Under the pieces are notes generated by a model, which worked only from the letters and a program-made list of their open reading frames with translations, was not told the DNA's origin and ran no database searches. A stretch of DNA of 51,077 nucleotides from the IMG/VR virus record IMGVR_UViG_3300020735_000013, positions 1-51,077 of that record, one strand, 5' to 3'. The position numbers and the translations under genes are program-made. This DNA comes from a virus (lineage: Duplodnaviria; Caudoviricetes). Positions 3,095 through 36,685 of the stretch are shown piece after piece; positions within the stretch are counted from its first letter, which is position 1, and every line of letters starts with the position of its first letter.

Positions 3095-3898
3095 TTAAAT
3101 TGCTGATGCTAGTGCTTGACCGTCATTTTGAATCAAAAAGCCTTCAATATAGGCGGCAACGTGTTGCGAAGAGCTATCGCTTGTTGAAAAAGCAAAAGTT
3201 AAATCTGCTTTTTGTTGAAACACATTTGGTGCATAACGGTGTACATCCACGAACAATGTAAAGCTAATTTGCGCGGTAGAAAGATTAATACCGTTTGTGG
3301 AATTAGTCAAATTGTAGAAAATGTATACATTGCTAGATAAGCTGCTACCAGACCAAGCATTAATACGGTTAAGGTAAAATGTGTAACCATTTGGTACAGT
3401 GTACACTGTCATTTGGCTACGACCTAAACCCGGGTTAATCTGAGCGTAAGTTGTACCACCGTTTGAAACAGTAATTGTTCCAACGTTGCTAACTTGACCA
3501 GAAGCTACGGCAGTCATAACTATGCTATTAATACGCAAAAATTTATTAACTGTAGTTACGCCAGTTGTACCATTTAATGCTACAACTTCGGTTAACTGAT
3601 TGTAGTTAGCATCAAGACCATTGATAGTTACTTTTGCTGGGCTTGCATCTGTTGCAGATGAACTAGCCACAGTCATGGTCAAAGCGGTGCTAGGGAATGT
3701 ATATGCTGTTGCATTTTCCCATAATGGGATTGACGTGCCTGCCACTGCAGCATTGTAACCATTAATATTAACTACTGTGTGACCCATAATTTGGTTACGG
3801 GAAACTTGTAAGTCAAACGGTTCTGTGCGACCAACTTTGGTAACAGATTCGATTGCTGCCGGAATGTTTTGTAGATTTGTTACTAGATTCGATGCCAT
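3095..3898 (-). CDS. Putative virion structural protein
   Basis: 267-aa beta-rich ORF with RBS in the structural cluster. Confidence 0.55.
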   Translation of the reverse strand: MASNLVTNLQNIPAAIESVTKVGRTEPFDLQVSRNQIMGHTVVNINGYNAAVAGTSIPLWENATAYTFPSTALTMTVASSSATDASPAKVTINGLDANYNQLTEVVALNGTTGVTTVNKFLRINSIVMTAVASGQVSNVGTITVSNGGTTYAQINPGLGRSQMTVYTVPNGYTFYLNRINAWSGSSLSSNVYIFYNLTNSTNGINLSTAQISFTLFVDVHRYAPNVFQQKADLTFAFSTSDSSSQHVAAYIEGFLIQNDGQALASAI

Positions 3899-7913: not shown

Positions 7914-8360
7914 TTAGTCTACAAACGCCTTCATTTTCTGCGCATGTTCAAATGACTTGATGCGAGAAATGATTTCACGTGCCTGCAATGTGATGAATAC
8001 TACTGCCGATCCATCGTCGCCGGGGTTAATAACAAAACGGTCACCACCGTACTTGATAGTACGTACTAGATCGCCTTCTTTGCACCATGGGCCTTCGACC
8101 CAATAGGACAATTCTTCGTCTAGGTTGCGGTATGCTAAGGGGCCAACTTGAACCACTTTAGCTACTGTCTCATTAAAACGTAACGTCTGTTTGGTCTCAT
8201 CAACTAGGATGATTCCGCCCTTACTGGTTGTTTTCTCACGGCGTAGTTGAACTAAAACGCGATCACCAGCTACTTCTACTCCAGGGTCAATAACTGGAAA
8301 ACACTCTGCTTCTGATCGTGTATCCGGCTCATCTGCCTGGTTGATATCAAATGCTGCCAT
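7914..8360 (-). CDS. groES: GroES-like co-chaperonin
   Basis: GDRVLVQ..EKTTSKGGIILVD..AKVVQVGP..KEGDLV..YGG Cpn10 signature. Confidence 0.85.
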   Translation of the reverse strand: MAAFDINQADEPDTRSEAECFPVIDPGVEVAGDRVLVQLRREKTTSKGGIILVDETKQTLRFNETVAKVVQVGPLAYRNLDEELSYWVEGPWCKEGDLVRTIKYGGDRFVINPGDDGSAVVFITLQAREIISRIKSFEHAQKMKAFVD

Positions 8361-12298: not shown

Positions 12299-12328
12299 AC
12301 TAATACGCTAATTGAGTCTAATCCGCCC
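12299..12328 (-). promoter_or_regulatory. Phage late-type promoter upstream of portal
   Basis: Reverse complement: gggcg gattagactcaatta gcgtattagt. Confidence 0.7.
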
Positions 12329-13773
12329 TACATAGAATATGGATTTACGAACTTATTCCTTATTGCGTCATCAGAATAGTCATAGTCACGTGCGGGTAGG
12401 AAATCGAGCTGAATCCAGCCAGAATCACGCAAAACACGCAAGGCCTGGGATAGGGAGTCCACGTAGTCATCATGGCCACCGGCTTCTGGGAACGAACATA
12501 CCTGGCGCAAGAATCGCTTGGCCCATTCGGCAAAGTCGCCCTTAACCTTGGAGTCTTCTGGTATGAAGACCTTACCCTTGGCAACGAGGGGCGCCACAAT
12601 GTTTAATCGCTGTACCTTATCCGCGCGCCCGGGGTTGTAGCCACGTACGGGCACACCAGAGCCCTGGAGCTCTTGTATAAGGGATATACCAGCACTCTTG
12701 TCTTCCATGAGGATCAGGTCCGCTTTACGGCCCTTACCGAAGTCGTTATCGGCGCCGTACACGACCTCCTTAAAGTCATCGATGACCTTGCGGCGCAGCT
12801 GTGGGTAGGCTAAATGCTGGTCCCACGCATCCAATAGGATGATGGATGTACCAGCATCTTCTTGCTCGAACACACCCCAGACTGTGCATGCAGTCGGGTC
12901 GTTCATGGTCTTTTCGCTGGTCGCCGGGTCATACGAGGCGATTACGTATTCTAAGATTGGCGTCGGCCTGTTGGCCGGCCACATCTTGAACTGCTTGCGC
13001 TTGATGATACCAGACGCTTCTGGGTCAAGGATTTCTCCGTAGATCTCCTGTCTGCCGATGTCTGTGCCGTCGTAAGTCTCGAGCTGTTTGAAGAAGGTCT
13101 CTGAGAGGTTGGCTCGGTTGTCAAACGATGAGGCGTTGACCATGTAGACGTCGCCACCAATTTTTCCTTCGGCCAGGTCGACGATGAGTTCTTTTGGCTT
13201 TGGGGTGGTGGTGATGATTTGCTGGACTCTTGGGATCCTAGGATCCTTAAGTCGCAAAGTGAACTGGACACCATCGTATGCGTCGTCGAGATAATCGAAG
13301 GCGCACAGCTCGTCAAACCAGGCCCCGTGGTATTGTTTACCACGATATCGTTCTGGCTCGGAGGCGGGGATTCCCTGGATGATTGATCCGTTGGTGAGGG
13401 TAATCTCAAAGAGGGACTTGTTGTAATCGCGGATAAGTGAGGCGGGAATGATATTGAGAAGTCCGGAGTCTCCCTCAAAACAAGTTGCACGAATATCATT
13501 GGAGGTTGGGGCAGTAACGAGCCAGCGTGTGCCCTCGTACTTCCAAGCGCGAATACCAATCCAATGAGAGGCAGTATGAGTCTTACCAGATCCACGACCT
13601 GCCAGCATGAGGAACGTGTCATACTCGCCATCTTCGGGTTCTTTTTGGTGCGGGAGGGCCTGCAGGCTCCATTTGACCTGCCACATGACGGAATCGAGTT
13701 GTTGCTTGGGCCAGTGTTTGTGTGCATCGGCGAACTTCTTTAAAGTAAGTTCCTGCTTTGGTGTTAAAGACAT
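12328..13773 (-). CDS. terL: Terminase large subunit
   Basis: Walker A AGRGSGKT, Walker B AWFDE, TTTPK coupling motif, RNase H-like nuclease SYDPA..HDDYVDS. Confidence 0.95.
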   Translation of the reverse strand: MSLTPKQELTLKKFADAHKHWPKQQLDSVMWQVKWSLQALPHQKEPEDGEYDTFLMLAGRGSGKTHTASHWIGIRAWKYEGTRWLVTAPTSNDIRATCFEGDSGLLNIIPASLIRDYNKSLFEITLTNGSIIQGIPASEPERYRGKQYHGAWFDELCAFDYLDDAYDGVQFTLRLKDPRIPRVQQIITTTPKPKELIVDLAEGKIGGDVYMVNASSFDNRANLSETFFKQLETYDGTDIGRQEIYGEILDPEASGIIKRKQFKMWPANRPTPILEYVIASYDPATSEKTMNDPTACTVWGVFEQEDAGTSIILLDAWDQHLAYPQLRRKVIDDFKEVVYGADNDFGKGRKADLILMEDKSAGISLIQELQGSGVPVRGYNPGRADKVQRLNIVAPLVAKGKVFIPEDSKVKGDFAEWAKRFLRQVCSFPEAGGHDDYVDSLSQALRVLRDSGWIQLDFLPARDYDYSDDAIRNKFVNPYSM

Positions 13774-14756
13774 GAGATAAATCCTTCCCCGACTAAGAAG
13801 CTCTTATCAGCTCCTTCGGTTTCTATATGAACACACATCTGTGGTTCAATTTGTTTTACGTGCTCTATGTAGCGCCGGGCTTGGTGGACCTTGAGCTTAG
13901 GTGACTCTTGGTGCTCCATGAGTTTGAGGCGGCTTCTAAATGTCAGTGTGTACTCGTTAAAGTCTTCCCGGTACGCCATGTTGGTCTTAATGCCTAGTGA
14001 TTCCACAAGGCCCTGGATTTGGCGCATTAGCTGGGATACTTTTCCCGTAATACGAAATGTATCTGACTGTTTGTTATACTGGCTGCGCTTGGCGTACAAG
14101 ATACCAGAGAGCAGTTCAATACGCTGCTCGGGCGCGGCTAGTAGGTAGTTGTTTGGGATTCTGGTCGGCACGTTGGGGATGAGCTGTGACTCAACCGTCG
14201 GCTTGGTGCTATAGACCCGGATGTGGATCTTTTTGTCACGCCAGGATGTTAGCAAGTAGCCGCAGTCCTTGAGCTTTTGGGTGACGTACTCGGTGTGCGC
14301 CTTGGGGATCTTGATGTGGTTCTTGGGGTTCTTATTGATGAACCAAAAGCCAAACACAAACGGGTGGACTGGTAGGTCCTGGTGCGACAGGGCAATAGGC
14401 TGGGTCGATGGTACCGAGTACAGCAGTGAGTTGTTTTTTCCACGTAGCGGGGCGTCTACCAGGTCCTGCATGGTTAGTGGTCGCAGTGGGCGCCTGAACT
14501 TATGCACACCCTTGTAGGTCACCAACCTGTTTCGGTATTTGGGGTTTTCTGTGGGTAGCGCTAGGTGTTTGTCACCAGAAATTGTTAGGCCATCAGATAG
14601 GGTGACTCGGTAGCAATCTTGGGCATAGTACTCTTGGACCAAGGTGACTTTGGCTGGTTGGCCAAGTCGGTCAAATACGTAATCTCCTACCTCAATCTTG
14701 GAGGCAGGTTTCCAGTAGTTATGGGTTAGTACTTTTTCTGTTGCTAGTATCGCCAT
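13764..14756 (-). CDS. Free-standing intein-like protein (Hint termini plus LAGLIDADG-like endonuclease region)
   Basis: N-terminal AILATEKVLT..W..ASKIEVGDYVFDRLGQPAKV; central HPFVFGFW and EQRIELLSGILYA; C-terminal CVHIETEGADKSFLVGEGFISCL*. Confidence 0.75.
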   Translation of the reverse strand: MAILATEKVLTHNYWKPASKIEVGDYVFDRLGQPAKVTLVQEYYAQDCYRVTLSDGLTISGDKHLALPTENPKYRNRLVTYKGVHKFRRPLRPLTMQDLVDAPLRGKNNSLLYSVPSTQPIALSHQDLPVHPFVFGFWFINKNPKNHIKIPKAHTEYVTQKLKDCGYLLTSWRDKKIHIRVYSTKPTVESQLIPNVPTRIPNNYLLAAPEQRIELLSGILYAKRSQYNKQSDTFRITGKVSQLMRQIQGLVESLGIKTNMAYREDFNEYTLTFRSRLKLMEHQESPKLKVHQARRYIEHVKQIEPQMCVHIETEGADKSFLVGEGFISCL

Positions 14757-15027
14757 GGTAGTTTTCTCGGACCCATTGGTCCAGGTAGCGCCCTAACGGC
14801 GCCCGAATGTTGTTTTGAACGGAGTACGGCAGTTTGGCTATGTTTAAGACTGCCTTGGTGCAGGATAGTCTAAACTGCAGGTACTTGGCGGTTTCTTTGT
14901 CCAGAATATTAGACGAGACATCCACCGTGTCAAAGTTGTACAAATCACATACCAAGATTCGTAAGCCCTTAAACTCACCGGCCACATTTTCCAGCGCGCC
15001 TTGGATTTGGTAGATGTATTTGTCCAT
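14719..15027 (-). CDS. Hypothetical protein, probably leaderless from ATG 15027
   Basis: MDKYIYQIQG start lies 6 nt after a phage promoter core. Confidence 0.55.
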   Translation of the reverse strand: MDKYIYQIQGALENVAGEFKGLRILVCDLYNFDTVDVSSNILDKETAKYLQFRLSCTKAVLNIAKLPYSVQNNIRAPLGRYLDQWVRENYHGDTSNRKSTNP

Positions 15028-15033
15028 ACTTCC

Positions 15034-15063
15034 ACTAATACGCAACTGGGGTAAATAAGCCCC
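15034..15063 (-). promoter_or_regulatory. Phage promoter heading the packaging operon
   Basis: Reverse complement: ggggc ttatttaccccagtt gcgtattagt. Confidence 0.65.
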
Positions 15064-15097
15064 AAGGTTTTAAAATATAGCTCGACTCTGTCCCCTT

Positions 15098-15271
15098 TTG
15101 TCTGGGTTGTCTGGGTTGCGAGGCTTATTCCAGTCCCCCCATACCCCCCCCTTATTATTTTTAAAAAATTATTTTAAAAAAATTAAATAAAGGGTTACAA
15201 CCCAGACAACCCATGCAGGGCGGCTGTAAGTCATTGATTTTGTTCAACGCAAATGATAATGATTCTTATTT
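15098..15271. repeat. Origin-like element, copy 1 (inverted iterons, C-tracts, AT-rich core, IHF and Fur-like sites)
   Basis: Homologous to 21297-21467; 36 bp identical (15184-15219 = 21380-21415). Confidence 0.75.
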
Positions 15272-15898
15272 ACTTTTTAAAAAAAATTTTAGGAAATTGG
15301 TTTTGCACCAAAACGGTGCATTTTGTAAGAGCTTGGGGGTTATGGGGCCCCCGGCGGCGGGTCGGCGTACAGGACCCAAATAGGGGATGTGGTATATAAA
15401 CAACACCCCGTCAAGGAAAAGGAGGGCCAACGTGACAATTTGCCTATGTCAATAGGTATATACCCTATGTGTTGCGCCAATACAACACTGTGGTATACAA
15501 ACAACAAGGCAACATGACACGCGCCCAAGCGCAGGCGCAGATGAGAATGCGTCTCATTCGCATCTAGGCCAACGTTTCACATTGCGGCATTGCATCTCAC
15601 AATGTGGAATGCAGACTATGCACCAATGTGGTGCGTTGGTCAGTGCACCAATGTGGTGCATTGGCATACTGGCTATTAGGGTAAACACCTATTGACGGAT
15701 AGGAGGGGCAAGAAGGGGCCTAGGAGACGAGCTGATGTGAGATGAGGGGTAGGTATCATCTAGGTGGAGAAGTCTAGTGATTGATATACTGTGTGGGCTC
15801 ACAGGGCACGCGTGCGCGAGGTGGCTAATTGGAGGGTGGGCGAGTGTTGGCTATTAGTCACAGACCACGCAGTCCCACAATATCCCACATAACCCCAC
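15227..15898. promoter_or_regulatory. Cluster of host-regulator-like binding sites (IHF, Fur, NtrC x3, HexR-like x3, IclR-like x2, LexA, MraZ)
   Basis: Matches to WATCAA-N4-TTR, AATGAGAATNATTCTCATT-type boxes, TGCACC-N5-GGTGCA, CTGT-N8-ACAG and (CCCAC-N5)n; coordinates in findings. Confidence 0.6.
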
Positions 15899-15923
15899 AA
15901 TCTAGTCAAGTATTAAATAGGTG

Positions 15924-15952
15924 TTGACATTCATTTCAAAGGTCCGTATACT
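15924..15952 (+). promoter_or_regulatory. sigma70 early promoter
   Basis: TTGACA-17 nt-TATACT. Confidence 0.85.
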
Positions 15953-15959
15953 GTTTTAC

Positions 15960-16215
15960 ATCGGAAGTGCAGTGGCTAATCCACTCAGGTAGTAAGCAAG
16001 TAGCACGGGGCCCAGCCCCACACCATCGCCCTTGCCTCTGCTCCAGCTGACATCTGACTGTCGCCAGTGACTAAGTACCAGCTGGCTTACCAACGTGGCG
16101 ATCCCTAGATATGCAAAGGCAAAGACTAGGTGCTGGATAAGAGGCAGTGCTCGAGACCAGCCAGTTAATCACTGAGATAGTATGCACCAGCGTGCTATGC
16201 CAGCAGTTAACTCAC
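15960..16215 (+). ncRNA. Candidate structured early leader RNA
   Basis: No credible ORF; nested helices 16033-39/16140-46, 16042-47/16132-37, 16061-66/16096-101, 16104-08/16126-30, 16177-85/16190-98. Confidence 0.45.
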
Positions 16216-16237
16216 AACACCACACAGGAGTAATACC

Positions 16238-16492
16238 ATGACAACAACAGCAACCAAGGCCACAACCCTGACATTCAAACAGTTAATGACTATCCAGTCA
16301 GTACTGCAGGATGCACGCAGAGAGCAGGCCCATGCAACATACGCACACGATCAGGTAGTTAAGGCATCACTCAAGGGCAACCCTGAGCGCCTTGAGTACT
16401 TAGTGGACGTACAGCAGGCAAACTATGATCAGAAACAAAACCTAGACCACGCATTCTATGCAGTCGAAGAGATGATCAGAGAGTACCAGTAA
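16238..16492 (+). CDS. Early hypothetical protein
   Basis: RBS AGGAG; first ORF after the early promoter. Confidence 0.7.
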   Translation: MTTTATKATTLTFKQLMTIQSVLQDARREQAHATYAHDQVVKASLKGNPERLEYLVDVQQANYDQKQNLDHAFYAVEEMIREYQ

Positions 16493-16495
16493 TCA

Positions 16496-16547
16496 GGTCG
16501 AAACAGTCGTGAGACTGTCTGCACGTTATGCGTGCACTGATGAGACC
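16496..16547 (+). ncRNA. Type II hammerhead ribozyme 1
   Basis: ggtc GAAA cagtc gtga gactg TC^ tgcacg ttatg cgtgca CTGATGA gacc; complete core, three paired stems, GUC cleavage after 16519. Confidence 0.92.
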
Positions 16548-16566
16548 AAACACTAGGAGCTATACC

Positions 16567-16818
16567 ATGCCAAAATTTACAGTGGTTAAACTAATTGACC
16601 AAAACAAAGTAGTGCCAGCAAGACTATTGCCCGAGCAGTCAGGTGACTACCTCGAGTGGTCAGTGGATGATAAAGACACCCTCCAGTACAATACAAAGAC
16701 CAAGCAGTTTAGCTATGAAGAGTATGAATTCCAAGATGATGACTGGGAGCTAGTTAACACCCTTGGCCACGATGTCGCGTACAAAATTGCATTGAACGAG
16801 GGCATCATCTACGAATAA
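16567..16818 (+). CDS. Early hypothetical protein flanked by two hammerheads
   Basis: AGGAG RBS before ATG 16567 (MPKFTVVK...). Confidence 0.7.
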   Translation: MPKFTVVKLIDQNKVVPARLLPEQSGDYLEWSVDDKDTLQYNTKTKQFSYEEYEFQDDDWELVNTLGHDVAYKIALNEGIIYE

Positions 16819-16821
16819 GCA

Positions 16822-16872
16822 GGTCGAAACCACTTGACGTGGTCTATACTTTTCTAGTATACTGATGAGACC
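16822..16872 (+). ncRNA. Type II hammerhead ribozyme 2
   Basis: ggtc GAAA ccac ttgac gtgg TC^ tatact tttct agtata CTGATGA gacc; cleavage after 16844. Confidence 0.92.
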
Positions 16873-16889
16873 AAACAACAGGAGCATAT

Positions 16890-17204
16890 ATGTACACAAT
16901 CAATATCGGATTAGCAAACCCATTCACCGGCAAGTACAACACGACCGACCGCACCATCGCAATGGCCCTGCAGTTTATTGAGGGTATTGTAGACATTAAG
17001 GTATCAACAGCAGGCGATGAGCCTACTGTGATCATCCAGTACACGCACCACAGGGGCAGTATCGCAGTGTTGGCGACTGCATTAGATCAGGACTGCATCG
17101 CACGTTACGATCACCAGCTCCTACGTGGTGAGCTCATTGGTGACAAGGCAGAGGCATGGGGTGAGTTTAACCCTGAGTATTTTCAGACTTGTTTTGGAGG
17201 GTAA
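16890..17204 (+). CDS. Early hypothetical protein
   Basis: AGGAG RBS; DQDCIA..GELIG..WGEFNPEYF. Confidence 0.7.
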   Translation: MYTINIGLANPFTGKYNTTDRTIAMALQFIEGIVDIKVSTAGDEPTVIIQYTHHRGSIAVLATALDQDCIARYDHQLLRGELIGDKAEAWGEFNPEYFQTCFGG

Positions 17205-17208
17205 TATT

Positions 17209-19204
17209 ATGAGTGATCTATTTAAACAGCAAGAGCTATTGAAATCCCTACTGGTAGAGGATGCCCTGCTTTTTGAAGAGGGCGACTGGGACGGGCTGGC
17301 CCAAGTGCGTATGAGTATTGACGCAGTCCGAGATCAAATTGCTAAACTACAAGGAGACTAACATGAGACAGCAAATAGTAGAAATGGCACTGCGTGAGCT
17401 CAACCGGCTAATACTTAATGAGGTAGAATATCCCACGGCCTTTGACCGGTTACTGTTGAACCTAGAGCTCAGTAGTGCTGAGGGTGATGAGCTCCAACGA
17501 TTGTATGACGAACAGGGATGGGCAAGATAATGACTAGAGTACAAACCCATTACCAAGGCGATGCCATGGTGTTTATCCAACGCGACGGCACTAAGGCCAC
17601 GCACCCCTATGAATTCACCCACAAGGGTGTTGACTATTACCTGCTAGGTGGTGTATACTATGACCTAGAGCAGGATTTGATTGACAGAATATTTAATTAG
17701 TTTTCGGTGGTTTGGTGACACTATTCAGCTCAAGTACTCGCAGACGAACGACTAAAAAGACACCAAGCCACCACCCAATACAGGAGGATATATGGCCGTA
17801 TCATTAGCACACAACATGGGTAACATAGTGCGCTCCAATATGAAGTGTACTAACTGCACCCATAAACGCGCATTCTTTTATAGCAAAGGCATTTGGTTTT
17901 GCTGGCACTGTAAGTGCACTCGACCAATGACACCAGTAGAAATTGATCAAGTAAATGAAGAGAACCAAAAACAAAGGGAGTACTCATAATGATTAAATAC
18001 GCAGTCAGATTAGACAATCAGGTAATATGGACCTGCGACGGCAAAGAAGAGCTCTATGATAGTGAGGAGGATGCTCTCTTGGCACTTCAGGAAGAGATGG
18101 ATGCCTGCGAGCGTGCGTGCCATCTTGGCTACATGGAGGACATTGGGGACTTTGACAATTACAGAATAGTGGAGGTGGAAAATGACTAATTGCTACTTAA
18201 TCGAGTTTGAAAATTTAGACGGGTGTTTCCAGTATGAGAGCTTTATGGCTGAGGATCAGTTTGAGGCAATCGACTTGTTTGACGAGCACTACCCAAAGTG
18301 CACGCCTTACAATGTATTCCTACAATTAAACCAATGGAGCAAAAACGATGAGTAAAAAGTACAAAGCATACGCAACAATCTCATACGATCTTGTTTGCGA
18401 GTTTGAGGTAGAAGACGGCGAGGATCCGTGGGACGTGGGGCGTAACCTCGACGGCGGTGATTTTAAAGAGATTGACAATTCCAGTGACTGGAACGTCTTT
18501 GACGTCGTGGAGGTAACAGAATAATGGGCGCGCTATATGACCTGATATTGAACGATGAGTACCGCACCACAATCTACGCGCATGATGAGCAGGACGCGTG
18601 GGAGATTGCTAATAGGTGGTACAATAACCCCGAGCAGGCCAAGATTAAACTACATGAGGAGCAGGTATAATGAAAACAATCACTATGACAATTGACGAAT
18701 ACAACACAATACGTCGTCTCAAAGATTTTGCGCAATGGTACATTGAAGAGCGAGAGCCAAGTGGCGAGCAGTATTTTATGGATCTTGAGGATGTATGTGC
18801 AGGCCAAGCGGCCATTGCGATTATTGACAGTAATATCTTTAAGCAGTATACTGCTGAAACATTCGAACCAACACAGGAGTAATGCCATGACATTCACAAT
18901 CAAAGACGTAAACAACATCGAGACAGACGACGAGGTAAGCCCAGCGGAGTATTACCAGTCAATCCAGCGCGCTATCAATGCCGGTATGTGGTCAATGCAG
19001 GGATCATACGGACGTGCCATGATGGACGCTATCAATGAGGGTAAGTGTTTGTTAGGCCTTAAACCTGCTAAGGATTATTGGGGTAACACTATCCCATCGC
19101 GCCTACAAGTTAAGGACGGCACCAAGGGATCATGGGACTATGTCAAAGAGCACAGCGGCATGGTATGGGCAAACAATATGGCAGGTGTTGACATCAAGAA
19201 ATAA
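17209..19204 (+). other. Array of small, tightly packed early ORFs (e.g. 17792-17989 Cys-rich, 17989-18189, 18670-18882, 18887-19204, plus several <60 aa)
   Basis: Consecutive GGAG-type RBSs and overlapping stop/start codons on the + strand; no recognisable functions. Confidence 0.6.
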
Positions 19205-19500: not shown

Positions 19501-19979
19501 CATGCACGGATTAAACATTATTAAAAGACTCAACCGCACAGAGCAGGACTTTATTGACCACATCCTTGCAACACCAGTACCGGATGTAAACCTATTAGAC
19601 GTGTGGACTAATTGGAAAGCAGAACAAGCAGAGGCCAAGGCAGATGTCGCAGTACAAGTACATACTGATTGACGAGTTTGGAGGGGCCTGCAGGCAGTTT
19701 GTATCTAAGCTGGAGGCTACCCCCTACCTTACCGCAGGCATGAGCTTAAAGGCACTACCACGTCAGCCCAAAGTCAGCCCGTACCAATTAGCCACAACAC
19801 TATTGAAGGAGGCACCATTTTGAAAGTCATCGGATTCTTTATGTTTATTTATGGCTGGTTTACCTTGTATGATGCAGGCCTTAGCTTTGAGGGCACAGCA
19901 TTCTTACTAGCAGGCCTGCTCATTGTGATGTACGAGGAGATCTTGCCACGTGTTGAGATTTTATTCAGAAGGAATCACA

Positions 19980-20543
19980 ATGAATGACTTTTTAACTGAT
20001 TACCTGCAATCCCTGTATGGTATACCAGTGTTAGATTCAGAAGAGGAGTACGCATTAGCAGAGCGCATCAGTCAAGGTGACGAGCAGGCATTAGATAAGC
20101 TGGTCACCCACAACCTGCGCTTTGTGGTGTATACTGTACGCAAACTGACGGCGTGGAACCACTCACGCACACCGCAGGAGGATTTGATTGGCATGGGCAA
20201 CATGGCACTACTAAAAGCCGCTCGCCAGTGGAAACCAACCCAAGGTGCTAAGTTTGCCACGTACGCCAAGGGGTTTATCCTTCGAGGCATTGAGCGTGGA
20301 CAAGATGACACTGAGAACCTGATACGTATACCAATCAAGGTGCGAGAGGAGATGCGCAAACTGATGTACACTGAGCGTGCATTAACTCAAACACTAGGAC
20401 GACAACCCACGGCCAATGAGATGGCCACTATCTTAAACAAGACAACCAAGAGGATTAACCAGCTTAAGTTTTACATGCAACAAGAGCCAGCGTCCTTGGA
20501 CGCACTGCAATTAGATAAACTGGAGGATAACGAAGATGAGTAA
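19980..20543 (+). CDS. sigma70-family factor with regions 1.2, 2 and 3 only (no region 4)
   Basis: DYLQSL..PVLDSEEEYALA, LVTHNLRFVV, EDLIGMGNMALLKAA, KFATYA, LIRIP, LGRQPTANEMA; ends just after SLD and an acidic finger. Confidence 0.88.
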   Translation: MNDFLTDYLQSLYGIPVLDSEEEYALAERISQGDEQALDKLVTHNLRFVVYTVRKLTAWNHSRTPQEDLIGMGNMALLKAARQWKPTQGAKFATYAKGFILRGIERGQDDTENLIRIPIKVREEMRKLMYTERALTQTLGRQPTANEMATILNKTTKRINQLKFYMQQEPASLDALQLDKLEDNEDE

Positions 20544-21076: not shown

Positions 21077-21241
21077 ATAAAGATCCATGGGACAACTACC
21101 TAAAATGGTTATTACTTTTCACCGCCTTATACTTTTTAGGGCACATAGCCTGTGCGTTGGCTGATCAGACCATCGTACAGACACCAGGTGCACCGACTAC
21201 TACCTGCATTGTCAACAAGGGATGGGTTACCTGCTTGTAGT

Positions 21242-21467
21242 AAATGAGAATGATTCGCATTTGAGCCCTAATAAAATCAAGGACTTAGCGAAGACTTGCA
21301 TGGGTTGGGTGGGTTGTGTACCATATTCACCCCCCTTATACCCCCCTTTGATTTTTTTAAAAAGATTTTTTAAAAAAGATAAATAAAGGGTTACAACCCA
21401 GACAACCCATGCAGGCAACGTGTAACCCATTGATTTTATTCAATCCAAATGAGAATGATTATCATCT
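21242..21467. repeat. Origin-like element, copy 2 (mirror-symmetric; putative replication origin)
   Basis: Fur-like / IHF / iterons / AT-rich core / iterons / IHF / Fur-like, immediately upstream of primase-helicase. Confidence 0.75.
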
Positions 21468-21475
21468 AGCTTATA

Positions 21476-21518
21476 TTTCACATTGTGAGAGCATAAATAC
21501 CCCATTTTGCGTATTAGT
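21476..21518 (+). promoter_or_regulatory. Phage promoter with upstream TTTCACAWTGTGA palindrome
   Basis: tttcacattgtgaga starts 32 bp before tgcgtattagt. Confidence 0.7.
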
Positions 21519-21539
21519 TATGGCAAGAAGAAAGGAATT

Positions 21540-23840
21540 ATGAAACCAAACACGCTACCAGTCCTGACACAAAACATACCAGCGACCCTAAAGAAAATCC
21601 CACGCTGGGTGATGTGGTCATTCGTCGAGGTAGGTGAGGGCGAGAACAAACGCTGGTCCAAGATGCCACTGCAGACTAATGGCAGACCGGCCTCATCCAC
21701 CAACCCCGAGACGTGGGCAGACTTCCTCACAGTCGAGGATGCCTATCAGTCAGGTAAATTCTCAGGTATCGGCTTTGTGTTCAGCAAGGACGACGACCTA
21801 GTAGGCATAGACTTAGACGATTGCTTTGACCACCAATCAGAGTCTTTCATAAATGCTGCAATGCAGCATCTCGCCAGTCAGGTCGATGGCTACATGGAGA
21901 TCAGCCCATCGGGTACCGGCGTAAAGATATTCACCCGCTCCATCCCGTTTGCCTCACACGCAGACCACTCAATCGGCTTTGAGGCGTATTCTCAATCTCG
22001 GTTCTTTACTGTAACAGGACACCATTTATCAGGGACAATACCCGATGAGCCTCAAGATCTCACAGACATCATTCCCGCCAGAGCTCTACGACACACAGGC
22101 GACGCCTTCGGTGACTACACAGCTCCACTGGAGGGATGGGACATCAACCGAGTCGAGACAGAACTCTTGGCCAACATCGACCCCGAGTGTGGCTACCATG
22201 ATTGGCTCAAAGTCGGGGCAATTCTACACCATCAATTTCATGGCGACGTCGAGGCGCTAGAGGCGTGGGATAGATGGTCAGCAACAGGCTCATCCTACAC
22301 CTCAACGGGTGACTACTCATGCGAGAACAAGTGGAGAACCTTTAAGGGCTCAGGTGCCACGCTGCGCTCATTGATATTCCAAGTGAACCAAAAGGAGCGT
22401 CAGCAGGCATTGGCACGTGGTGAGATTATCCTTGACGCTGGCACCATGAACCACGCCCGTAAATTCTTGGAGTCTTACTACACTGAGGAAGAGGGTTACA
22501 AGTTAGTGCACTACGCCGATGACTTTTATATCTACGGCGGCACACACTATGAGGTAATCGAGGAGGCAACGATCCGCTCCAAGGTATACACCTTCTTAGA
22601 TAAGTGCAAGAAGTCAGGTAAGCAAGGTGCGTTGGTGCCGTTCAACCCATCGCCGGCAACTGTCAGTGGCGCGTTAGATGCAATCAAGTCGATTGTCCAC
22701 CTACCAAACCACCAAAACACTAAGCCACCGATTTGGTTAGAAGAGTATGCACGCACTAAACCCGAGGCCAGCAAGTTAGTCTCACTTAAGAATGGCTTGT
22801 TTCATTTAGAGGACTCGATACTGATACCGCACTCACTGGGTTTTTTTACACAGAACTCTTTGCCGTTTGCTTATGATCCAATAGCCACATCACCAACGTG
22901 GGAGAACTTCTTACACTCGGTGTGGCCTGATGACCAGCAGTCTATCGAGTGCCTTCAAGAAATGTTTGGCTACATCCTTAGTGGTGACACCAAGCAACAA
23001 AAATTCTTCAACATCATCGGCCCACGTCGCTCAGGTAAAGGCACAATCAACAAGGTGCTCGTTGCCCTACTTGGACAACATAACACAGTGGCACCAGAAC
23101 TAGGAGAGCTTTGTGACACATTTGGTCTTCAACCTTGGCTTGGTAAGCTACTCGCTTCTTTTACTGATGCTCGCGCACCGGAAAGGAATCGTTCTGCTGT
23201 GGTTAGTCAGCTTCTTCGTATTGTGGGCGGTGATACCATTACCGTAAATCGCAAGAACAAAGAGGCATGGAACGGATACCTCCCAACGCGATTAGTAATC
23301 TACTCGAACGAAGTTTTGCAACTAACAGAGAACTCTAACGCATTGACTGGCCGTATGATTGTATTGAAGATGACCAAGTCGTTCTTTAATAAAGAGGACA
23401 CCGACCTAGCGCACAAGCTAGAGCAAGAGCTCGGTGGTATCTTTAACTGGGCGATGGAAGGACTCAAGCGTCGTATCAATCGCGGTGGCCACTTTGTGCA
23501 ACCTGAGAGCGGTAAAGAATACCTTGACCTGATGGCCGAGCTGGGCAATCCAATCGGCTCATTCGTTGAGGACGCGTTGATCTTTGACGCCACCTCAATG
23601 GTTAGCAAGGACGATGTGTTTGCATGCTACAAACACTGGGCGCTTAAGAAGTCTATGAGCCCAGGAACCGAGCAGGCATTTAAGCGCAGATTCTTGGCGG
23701 CAACTCAGGAGAACTTTGTTAAGTCAGATCTAGTTAGCACCAACGGCGAGAGATCGCACGTGTACATGGGTGTGCGCTTTAACGACAAGGCACAGAAATT
23801 CTTAGACGGAATTGTAAAATTTGATGAAGGAATATTTTAA
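21540..23840 (+). CDS. Primase-helicase (AEP-type primase, PriCT-2, D5-like SF3 helicase)
   Basis: GIDLDDC, EISPSGTG, RFFTVTG; YHDWLKVGAILH..WDRWS; Walker A GPRRSGKGT. Confidence 0.9.
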   Translation: MKPNTLPVLTQNIPATLKKIPRWVMWSFVEVGEGENKRWSKMPLQTNGRPASSTNPETWADFLTVEDAYQSGKFSGIGFVFSKDDDLVGIDLDDCFDHQSESFINAAMQHLASQVDGYMEISPSGTGVKIFTRSIPFASHADHSIGFEAYSQSRFFTVTGHHLSGTIPDEPQDLTDIIPARALRHTGDAFGDYTAPLEGWDINRVETELLANIDPECGYHDWLKVGAILHHQFHGDVEALEAWDRWSATGSSYTSTGDYSCENKWRTFKGSGATLRSLIFQVNQKERQQALARGEIILDAGTMNHARKFLESYYTEEEGYKLVHYADDFYIYGGTHYEVIEEATIRSKVYTFLDKCKKSGKQGALVPFNPSPATVSGALDAIKSIVHLPNHQNTKPPIWLEEYARTKPEASKLVSLKNGLFHLEDSILIPHSLGFFTQNSLPFAYDPIATSPTWENFLHSVWPDDQQSIECLQEMFGYILSGDTKQQKFFNIIGPRRSGKGTINKVLVALLGQHNTVAPELGELCDTFGLQPWLGKLLASFTDARAPERNRSAVVSQLLRIVGGDTITVNRKNKEAWNGYLPTRLVIYSNEVLQLTENSNALTGRMIVLKMTKSFFNKEDTDLAHKLEQELGGIFNWAMEGLKRRINRGGHFVQPESGKEYLDLMAELGNPIGSFVEDALIFDATSMVSKDDVFACYKHWALKKSMSPGTEQAFKRRFLAATQENFVKSDLVSTNGERSHVYMGVRFNDKAQKFLDGIVKFDEGIF

Positions 23841-29751: not shown

Positions 29752-30045
29752 ATGAATGAAAAAGAACTCCTAGAACTCCTCAAAGGGATCATTGCCTTGG
29801 CAACACCCCTTAACTCTAACGGCGTGGAAATCACGTCATTAGACACGCCGATTGCAGACACCGGCTTAGATAGCCTGGATTTGCTCATGGTGGGGATTTA
29901 TTTGAGCGACGTTTATGGAGTATCTGAAGAGATAGCAAAAACAATGGATCCAGTAACCATTCGAGACATGCTGCAGTTTATGCAATTTCACAGCACTAAA
30001 CAGCCTGTTAGCGTAGAGGCAACGTTAAATGATATATCTAACTGA
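29752..30045 (+). CDS. Acyl carrier protein
   Basis: Small acidic protein with phosphopantetheine site GLDSLDLL. Confidence 0.85.
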   Translation: MNEKELLELLKGIIALATPLNSNGVEITSLDTPIADTGLDSLDLLMVGIYLSDVYGVSEEIAKTMDPVTIRDMLQFMQFHSTKQPVSVEATLNDISN

Positions 30046-31132
30046 TTACAGAACGGTTTGCAATGAGAATACGACGCTTATCTCTGACATTGATTACCCC
30101 CAGCGTGTTCATTGGTTTGCTGATAGCTATAGTAAATCTCATACCGGATTTAGTTACGCACCACATATCGTGGCCTCTAAACTCCTGGACCCGACACTGA
30201 TTGAAGACTTACGCAGCAGAGAAGGTCGTACAGCATTTATCCTAGCAGCGGGCAACACTAACTTTGCTGGGATCAATAAAGACATACCAAAGACTAGCCT
30301 TAGTTACAACTACAAATTTTCACACCTAACATTAACGCAAGTGTACGCTGGAATTTTGGCAAAGTATTTGGGCGCAGAAGACATGATCCTAACAGACTCC
30401 AGCGCATGCGCTTCAAGTCTTAAGGTGATGATGGATGTGCAGATGTTGTTTCAGATGTATCGGTTTGATAGAGTAATTGTTGTATCCGTTGAAGACCAAG
30501 TTAGTAACATGGTATTAAAGTTTTTTGGTGAATCCAAGGCAGTCTTAACGAAAGAACAAGACGACGCCGGCGTTTTACCATCGGCCTTTGATGACGTGAA
30601 TTATGGTTTTCATATCGGCCAGGGTGCTGTACTTGCAGTGTTTGAAAATGAGAACCACGCTAAGAATCCTGCAGCTCGCCTATTAAGCTCGTACAACGCA
30701 TCTGAAAAGGGAGCCAACGCGATAGGACAGCGTGAGGATGGTGAAGGCTTTGCTAAGGCCGCATACGGCGCGTTGCGCTACGGTAACTTAATGCCAAGAG
30801 ATATTGATGTCATTAAGACCCACGGAACCGGCACAAAGTCAAACAACAAGGCAGAACACAGCGCCCTGGTCACTGTATTTGGTAAAGAGTTTACTGCGAC
30901 ATCATTTAAACCAACGATCGGCCACACCATGGGAGCGTCAGGTTTATTAGAGACTTGTCTACTGTTAGATAGTTTAAAAACCGGAGTCGTCCCGCCAATT
31001 AAAAACAGGACAACAGAAGACCACCGGTATCTATCGTCTGCAATTACAGTAGATAAAGATACTAAGATTTTAAGTTTAGCAGCAGGTATGGGAAACATTT
31101 ATTCAGCAGCAATCTTTGATACAAAACTATGA
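30029..31132 (+). CDS. Beta-ketoacyl-ACP synthase (FabB/FabF-like)
   Basis: Catalytic Cys-His-His: SACASS, KTHGTGT, GHTMGASG; C-terminal AAGMG. Confidence 0.9.
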   Translation: MIYLTDYRTVCNENTTLISDIDYPQRVHWFADSYSKSHTGFSYAPHIVASKLLDPTLIEDLRSREGRTAFILAAGNTNFAGINKDIPKTSLSYNYKFSHLTLTQVYAGILAKYLGAEDMILTDSSACASSLKVMMDVQMLFQMYRFDRVIVVSVEDQVSNMVLKFFGESKAVLTKEQDDAGVLPSAFDDVNYGFHIGQGAVLAVFENENHAKNPAARLLSSYNASEKGANAIGQREDGEGFAKAAYGALRYGNLMPRDIDVIKTHGTGTKSNNKAEHSALVTVFGKEFTATSFKPTIGHTMGASGLLETCLLLDSLKTGVVPPIKNRTTEDHRYLSSAITVDKDTKILSLAAGMGNIYSAAIFDTKL

Positions 31133-33732: not shown

Positions 33733-33815
33733 GCTGAAGTCGCATAGTGGCAATTGCAGCTGCTTTGTAAGCAGCCCCGAAAGGTACGTCAGTTCGAGTC
33801 TGACCTTCAGCACCA
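33733..33815 (+). tRNA. tRNA-Thr(UGU) with long variable arm and encoded CCA
   Basis: Acceptor GCTGAAG/CTTCAGC-A-CCA; anticodon arm gctgc-ttTGTaa-gcagc; T arm gtcag-ttcgagt-ctgac. Confidence 0.88.
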
Positions 33816-36093: not shown

Positions 36094-36166
36094 AACAACA
36101 GTAAAAGGTTAGACAGACTGGCACCTACTGAAGACCAGTCTTAATGTTAAAAAGGATTTAATCATC

Positions 36167-36685
36167 ATGGCAACAAAATCAATCAAAACCAAGTTTGTAA
36201 CTGGTAAAGTACGTTTCTCCTACGCCAATGTGTTCCAGCCAGCTGAGACACCAAACGGCACATTAAAGTACTCTGTTTCTATCCTGATCCCAAAATCAGA
36301 TACAGATACTGTCAATCGTTTTAAGAAGGCCTTTGAAGATACCAAGACAGCTAACGCAGCTGTATGGGGTGGCTCTATTCCTAAGCTCCTTAAAGGCGGC
36401 TTACGTGACGGTGACGCAGAGAAAGATGACGCAGCATACGCAGGTCACTACTTTATCAACGCCAGCTCTAACGAGAAACCTGGCATTGTTGACCAAGACT
36501 TGAACCCAATCATTGACACCAGCGAGTTCTACTCAGGTTGCTATGGTCGTGCTTCAATCACATTGTATCCATACGATACAAGTGGCTCTAAAGGCATCGC
36601 TGCCGGTTTGAACAACGTTCAGAAACTGGAAGACGGTGAGAAGTTTGGTGGTTCTACTTCTGCAGCGGCAGACTTTGCAGTATGA
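36167..36685 (+). CDS. DUF2815 ssDNA-binding protein
   Basis: VRFSYANVF, LRDGD, YSGCY, GLNNVQKL.DGE, acidic/aromatic tail. Confidence 0.88.
   Translation: MATKSIKTKFVTGKVRFSYANVFQPAETPNGTLKYSVSILIPKSDTDTVNRFKKAFEDTKTANAAVWGGSIPKLLKGGLRDGDAEKDDAAYAGHYFINASSNEKPGIVDQDLNPIIDTSEFYSGCYGRASITLYPYDTSGSKGIAAGLNNVQKLEDGEKFGGSTSAAADFAV

Follow-up and report, generated by a model that had tools for sequence, protein, structure and literature searches.

What could a phage gain from a non-coding gap packed with sites that resemble the operators of many unrelated host regulators? A sequence-only reading had described such an array at 15227-15898 of one phage contig, at the strand switch and a likely genome end, and had offered a landing pad for host proteins, a regulator decoy or a sensor of host physiology as its role. 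We analysed the whole stretch (the window), IMGVR_UViG_3300020735_000013, a single phage contig of 51,077 bp, together with its relatives and candidate hosts.

Phage, family and candidate host

The window is probably a fragment of a longer genome, because a 65.6-kb contig (L390) is identical to it in every segment tested across 12328-16818. Virion and packaging genes run leftward from about 15045 and small early genes rightward from 16238. Downstream of the early genes lie genes for a sigma factor (19950-20543), a primase-helicase, a helicase and DNA polymerase A. A possible HTH protein is also encoded, as are GroES (7914-8360), a beta-ketoacyl synthase (30029-31132) and a B12-type ribonucleotide reductase.

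The terminase large subunit gene (terL; Terminase_6N/6C), at 12328-13773 on the minus strand, served as the family anchor in a search of IMG/VR for relatives, which returned 430 related stretches; 80 were kept. A MAG titled 'uncultured beta proteobacterium' also contains three contigs with a TerL match. The relatives of this MAG (G002-G027, 1.4-2.8 Mb), presumably Polynucleobacter-like, were used as candidate hosts. The phage contigs in the MAG and the operators shared with these genomes point to a betaproteobacterial group as the probable host. The nearest cultured portal and TerL are those of Caulobacter phage RW and its cluster (46% and 42%, respectively), and the portal also matches CRP-901 and HTVC023P. 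A blastn search of the array region against cultured phages found nothing.

A search for a TerS identity of the ORF at 14719-15045 gave no identification. The free-standing 330-aa ORF before terL (13764-14756) matches parts of terminase and helicase-loader PHROGs and had no match in a Pfam search; it is possibly intein- or homing-endonuclease-like.

Operator-like sites in the strand-switch gap

All motifs listed in the sequence-only reading are present at 15227-15898, small one-base slips aside; the two 15-bp palindromes, for instance, truly extend over 15453-15467 and 15677-15691, one flanking base less on each side than had been given. Gapped palindromes (arms of at least 5, gap of at most 11) number 40 in the 750-bp tile starting at 15000, compared with 2-24 in the other 67 full tiles. 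We built 12 matrices from sites in betaproteobacterial genomes, nine of them from gene-anchored loci. Those for Fur, the cox2-type operator and the 15-bp palindrome are less independent, since the host sites behind them were first located with patterns modelled on the phage. Scanning 15227-15898 gave nine matches, compared with a mean of 0.34 and a maximum of 3 in 500 dinucleotide shuffles; five of the nine are not fully independent, and the other four (three NtrC, one IclR-type) come from gene-anchored matrices. For the MraZ match from 15873, the 27-bp matrix extends one base beyond 15898.

From left to right the gap holds an origin-like module, a conserved anchor, a variable array, and then conserved elements with MraZ-type boxes and a sigma-70 promoter. 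One NtrC-type palindrome, matched by the glnA-derived matrix, lies to the left of the anchor (15304-15320). The tract 15433-15506 comprises a 5+9+5 dyad (TGACA-N9-TGTCA, 15433-15451), recovered in the palindrome listing, the first 15-bp palindrome, and two 18-bp dyads (15470-15487 and 15489-15506). It is followed by a Fur-type site with two overlapping matrix matches (15538-15566) and by a pair of IclR-type sites 20 bp apart (15575-15609), which is like the upstream region of host aceA and in which the copy at 15595 is above the matrix threshold. Two more NtrC-type palindromes, 25 bp apart, were found both by the matrix and in the palindrome listing (15619-15660). The second 15-bp palindrome carries a conserved 3′ extension (15677-15696). 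De novo 11-mer clusters mark out conserved elements in a fixed order (15701-15860), among which lies a non-conserved LexA-like 16-mer (15789-15804). Four MraZ-type boxes with a 10-bp period, supported by the matrix and by host comparison, occupy 15864-15898 on the minus strand, and a sigma-70-type early promoter (11 of 12) lies at 15924-15952 on the plus strand, before the first early ORF (16238). A search of the array for structured RNA families found none.

Correspondence with operators of the candidate hosts

The labels NtrC, Fur, IclR-type and MraZ hold: the words found in the phage also occur in the hosts, where NtrC, Fur, IclR, MraZ, PhaR and HrcA operators precede glnA, amtB, tonB, aceA, mraZ, phasin and groES. 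The regulator names other than NtrC are those that we presume from the consensus. For glnA, mraZ, aceA, phasin and groES, the site was found upstream of the expected gene in five of five genomes each. The phage differs in that the operators are removed from their genes and strung together, and its NtrC-type sites are spaced at 25 bp, whereas glnA is preceded in all five host genomes by two such sites about 51 bp apart. The NtrC pattern occurs at eight places in 5 of 26 genomes, and at five of these places it precedes glnA, amtB or CP-ATP-grasp genes. The core NtrC regulon, in the accessible text of PMC5343134, includes glnA and amtB.

The IclR-type pattern has 13 host places, eight before isocitrate lyase genes (two called by Pfam, six by the same N-terminus) and one before a probable aceE; the spacing of the pair at host aceA is 20 bp in three of five genomes, 21 bp in one and 25 bp in one. 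Of 26 genomes, 15 carry the Fur pattern (control, 0), in front of genes for TonB, a TonB-dependent receptor and solute-binding proteins. Three boxes with a 10-bp period precede mraZ in five of five genomes; a strict triple pattern matched 0 of 26 because the middle box of the host differs. De novo footprints before phasin, groES, nrdA and recA yielded dyads that we take to be of the PhaR, CIRCE, NrdR and LexA types, respectively.

In a sliding test, at least 12 arrays were matched by 37 of 952 upstream windows and by 7 of 1,111 coding windows. The coding maximum (29 arrays) exceeded the upstream maximum (26), and single peaks therefore have no value as proof. The 15-bp palindrome was not above control in the host genomes (10 non-phage matches compared with 9 control matches, 41 genomes); all 10 lie outside ORFs of at least 120 aa.

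Other labels did not survive. HexR had been proposed as a weaker match, and an RpiR-family HTH was found in none of eight candidate-host genomes; three of five host matches to the HexR pattern lie before porins, and the matches are no more numerous than in the control. The 18-bp dyads resemble, by eye, two elements upstream of a host porin gene (5/5 genomes). They are not confirmed as operators, the porin-promoter matrix matching just 2 of 42 arrays of relatives, the same as in shuffles. The proposed LexA site (15789-15804) scores below the threshold of the recA-derived matrix, and its arms are broken in seven of seven similar stretches of other arrays. The IHF-like site and the first Fur site are present as described, but belong to the origin-like module copied before the primase gene.

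Conservation and reshuffling among relatives

Anchored loci were found in 128 cases; the 109 with at least 700 bp downstream were kept, and dereplication left 42. Conserved motifs with divergent spacers had been suggested as a check in related phages. The array proved to be family-wide, with the kind, number and order of sites varying. The median array holds 8 sites of 4 kinds, compared with 0.43 in shuffles, and an early-gene control gave 7 sites in 34 segments of 400 bp. Enriched among the 42 arrays (shuffled mean in parentheses) were NtrC in 31 (0.8), the 15-bp palindrome in 26 (1.3), IclR-type in 24 (1.4), Fur in 24 (1.1), PhaR in 20 (2.0), cox2-type in 19 (1.7), MraZ in 13 (1.3) and HrcA in 6 (1.0). 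LexA (3), NrdR (2) and the two porin-promoter matrices (porinB 3, porinA 2) were not enriched across the same arrays. With these matrices, two of the 42 arrays have no site and one has a single site. Spaced dyads found de novo recur in up to 27 of 42 arrays, compared with at most 11 in shuffles.

Nearly every array has its own number and order of sites, and a relative whose TerL is 95% identical aligns over no more than 35 of the 290 bp of the array body. When near-identical genomes are compared, conservation of the array (98-99%) does not exceed that of terL, so this comparison carries no signal of selection. Dense site clusters occur only at the strand-switch gap, with smaller groups at the primase module (window and four relatives, 52-60 kb scanned). 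Relatives add PhaR, CIRCE, sigma-54 (in both orientations) and DnaA-type sites; the exact DnaA-type 9-mer is in 3 of 42 arrays and absent from the window. An IclR-type site has a partner at exactly 20 bp in 22 of 38 cases in phages; NtrC and PhaR sites lack any constant spacing to a partner. The asymmetric CIRCE variant of the host is carried by relatives. Phage sites never outscore host sites in the six kinds compared, on host-trained matrices that are biased towards the host, and the symmetry of NtrC-type sites is 0.77 in phages and 0.64 in hosts. The array of host-type operators is real, conserved in the family and reshuffled.

NtrC activates transcription via sigma-54. With a matrix seeded from a relative, whose sigma-54 label we presume, the best score in the window was 10.4 (threshold 14). 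Among the relatives, 11 of 42 arrays carry a total of 21 sites, of which 10 are forward and 11 reverse, some of them in back-to-back pairs; since they face both ways, they are not aimed at the early genes. The 31 arrays with NtrC-type sites include that of the window, which has no sigma-54-type site at threshold, and sigma-54 itself was found in only three of eight candidate hosts.

Despite the lack of matrix enrichment, relatives L092, L076 and L063 visibly carry nearly identical copies of the host NrdR box. Four of the 10 host matches to an operator that is frequent in the arrays of relatives (noted at L298 and L303-L305) and absent from that of the window precede the gene for cytochrome oxidase subunit II.

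Origin-like modules, anchor and possible genome end

The module at 15097-15272 consists of iteron-like inverted repeats (15103-15118 and 15198-15213) around an AT-rich core, followed by what we take to be an IHF-like site (15227-15239) and by a Fur-type site at about 15250-15271. A second module (21239-21490), with Fur-type sites at 21241 and 21446 and an IclR-type site at 21476, lies before the primase-helicase gene (21507-23840); the copy at 21301-21468 is 79% similar over 170 bp. The module is duplicated likewise before the primase gene in four of five relatives, and Fur-type and IHF-like sites flank both modules. Iterons around an AT-rich core beside a P4/D5-type primase-helicase, with matching copies within the phage, suggest that both modules are replication origins. 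At the strand switch of HTVC023P (L472, 2600-2800), iteron-like repeats, an AT-rich core and an IHF-like site are seen by eye beside terS, as here.

The conserved anchor (15344-15409), found at 109 loci (42 dereplicated), is a GC-rich dyad with a variable centre of about 19 bp (15344-15377), followed by a G4...C4 hairpin (15383-15409); the operator-like words inside the hairpin vary from relative to relative. The anchor is a candidate packaging or terminus signal. One contig spans 15200-17745 at flat depth (15.9 and 15.5; assembled contigs only). Depth is also level where contigs from four runs pass through the anchor, and it shows no step over 15200-19200 (contigs only). Contig ends, of which 80 are distinct, are scattered, with a local excess at the AT-rich module and a single end at the anchor.

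The RW group offers the closest guide to the genome end. The Caulobacter phages RW and KcrB (Riverwalk cluster; PMC11053796) have the closest cultured TerL and portal. Their packaging genes, strand switch and early genes share the layout found here, and their 2,940-bp terminal repeat runs from a terminase fragment to inside the strand-switch gap (KcrB annotation, RW sequence). They differ in host class, and the RW gap, by eye, has no operator array. By analogy, the gap with the array would lie near a genome end as the sequence-only reading supposed, a position at the inner edge of a terminal repeat being more probable than one at the very tip. A cut near the anchor would place the array a short way inward of the left repeat's inner edge, some 3 kb from the leading end, and also on the concatemer end left behind. 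For CRP-901, the accessible text of PMC10149686 gives circular assemblies only.

Promoters and positional use of sites

The view that the sites are mostly too far from a promoter for ordinary repression is borne out. The only good sigma-70 promoter is that at 15924-15952, and most array sites lie 250-600 bp from it, without fixed distance or order. The MraZ boxes end 26 bp before its -35 element. A phage-sigma promoter motif occurs near 3526, 4619, 8578 and 12298 on the minus strand and near 21506, 27818, 34431, 36081 and 39245 on the plus strand. An IclR-type palindrome lies exactly 30 bp upstream of three replication-gene promoters in the window, which are among the matrix's own seeds, and 29 bp upstream of two promoters of relative G046. 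This shows that at least one motif, the IclR-type, is used positionally.

A PhaR-type palindrome at 21853-21869, inside the primase gene, is at the same place in five of five genomes scanned; it may reflect coding constraint.

Possible functions of the array

We consider it likeliest, with a probability of roughly 0.4, that the host-operator-like sequences form an occupancy platform, coated by host proteins on DNA entry. The array has a conserved signal, likely terminal, on one side and the first early promoter on the other. Host proteins would coat it as soon as its DNA enters the cell, and the coat would hold the leading DNA in the cell and shield or insulate the origin and the first promoter until these are handed over to RNA polymerase. 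A mixture of regulators that respond to different ligands would ensure occupancy of the block in any cell state. Place and density are conserved and regulator identity is not, which fits a block valued for being bound. Also consistent with such a platform are the turnover of sites over 42 arrays, the sigma-54-type sites facing both ways, NtrC-type sites without sigma-54, the restriction of clusters to the gap and, by analogy, the RW-group terminal repeat ending in the same strand-switch gap. Against it count the flat contig depth, the scattered contig ends, the arrays with no site (2/42) or one (1/42), the RW gap with no obvious array by eye, the roughly 3 kb that the RW analogy puts between array and end, and the IclR-type sites 30 bp before three promoters. 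Turnover would also be tolerated by a decoy.

As a decoy, the array would titrate scarce regulators (Fur, IclR, PhaR, HrcA, MraZ, NtrC) as genomes multiply from the adjacent origin, and would, with no phage protein involved, rewire the iron, carbon, nitrogen and chaperone genes of the host. Multicopy boxes are known to titrate Fur. Several sites per regulator per genome, the adjoining origin-like module, from which dosage would rise early, and the greater symmetry of the phage NtrC-type sites speak for it, as do the phage GroES, ribonucleotide reductase and ketoacyl synthase, through which the phage would engage these pathways. Yet the phage sites do not exceed host sites on the (host-biased) matrices for six kinds, the set of targets is replaced wholesale from one close relative to the next, activators are mixed with repressors that act in the opposite sense, and a decoy needs no fixed place beside the anchor; we regard it as possible but doubtful. 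A control hub, in which bound host regulators gate the early promoter or origin firing and delay or speed lysis by the nitrogen, iron, carbon and division state of the host, has a precedent in CtrA, which binds and regulates phage promoters in gaps and terminal repeats according to the accessible text of PMC9437464, where a similar role is proposed for CtrA-site regions. The MraZ boxes close to the -35 element, the IclR-type sites 29-30 bp before three promoters in the window and two in a relative, and the Fur and IHF-like sites around both origin-like modules would suit it. The distance of most sites from the only good promoter, their unfixed order, the dependence of NtrC on a sigma-54 promoter that was not found in the window, and the two-way sigma-54-type sites of relatives make it quite unlikely. 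Both readings yield to the occupancy platform because sites are interchangeable across arrays, though the three roles are not mutually exclusive.

It is also conceivable that phage proteins (terminase, replication or HTH proteins) are what binds the repeats, or that the repeats are neutral remnants of host promoters; their likeness to operators would then be incidental. In favour of this are the phage's own sigma factor and possible HTH protein, the tie between the IclR-type word and phage promoters, the lack of a matched host protein for the 15-bp palindrome and for the elements at 15701-15860, and the chance peaks in the coding controls. This explanation is, however, highly improbable in view of the enrichment of five gene-anchored matrices (NtrC, IclR, PhaR, MraZ and HrcA), the excess of upstream over coding windows in the sliding test, and the reproduction in phages of both the 20-bp IclR pair and the host's asymmetric CIRCE variant.

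A bolder version of the occupancy platform, which we think unlikely, is a host-agnostic, gene-free entry device made of fast-evolving captured host operators near the leading end, present solely to be bound. Any available regulator would then ratchet in and guard the incoming DNA before any phage gene is expressed. If true, it would be a general answer to how DNA ejection is completed and to the purpose of unexplained repeat tracts near phage ends.

Relation to known systems

Repeat-rich non-coding DNA near the entering end is known from the injection-stop region of T5 and the leading-end entry of T7, and datA-type loci soak up host protein. We know of no multi-regulator, reshuffled array in T5, T7 or datA-type loci. 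A search of open-access text found no paper on multi-regulator arrays in phages. CtrA-site-rich gaps and terminal repeats occur in alphaproteobacterial phages (vB_BsubS-Delta, phiCbk-like), with binding and regulation shown, in the accessible text of PMC9437464. Like the present array, these regions are crowded with host-regulator sites and lie in terminal repeats or in a large gap where divergent genes meet; they appear there to have evolved repeatedly. They involve one regulator, linked to promoters, with binding shown. Here the sites are likewise concentrated in the gap, but one regulator acting on adjacent promoters was not found; instead a median of 4 kinds per array, known from sequence alone, is swapped between relatives and mostly not promoter-linked. 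The reshuffled multi-operator array is a variant of the known host-regulator gap, with a possibly new function.

Host-regulator sites in phages are usually taken as single-input switches (LexA, CtrA). An array of this kind in a large freshwater phage family points to occupancy over signal, or to gene-free rewiring of host metabolism. The operators also provide a sequence fingerprint for host prediction of uncultured phages.

RNA elements and other intergenic features

Between the early genes, a type II hammerhead-like element (16496-16551) scored 28.8 bits, under the Rfam cut-off of 37 (E 0.01); a probable second copy lies near 16820-16874, and relatives have repeated copies. A DUF2815 RNA motif (36106-36169) precedes an ssb-like gene, and a tRNA lies at 33733-33812. 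A 46-bp intergenic element (17716-17761) is common to many otherwise unlike contigs in four runs.
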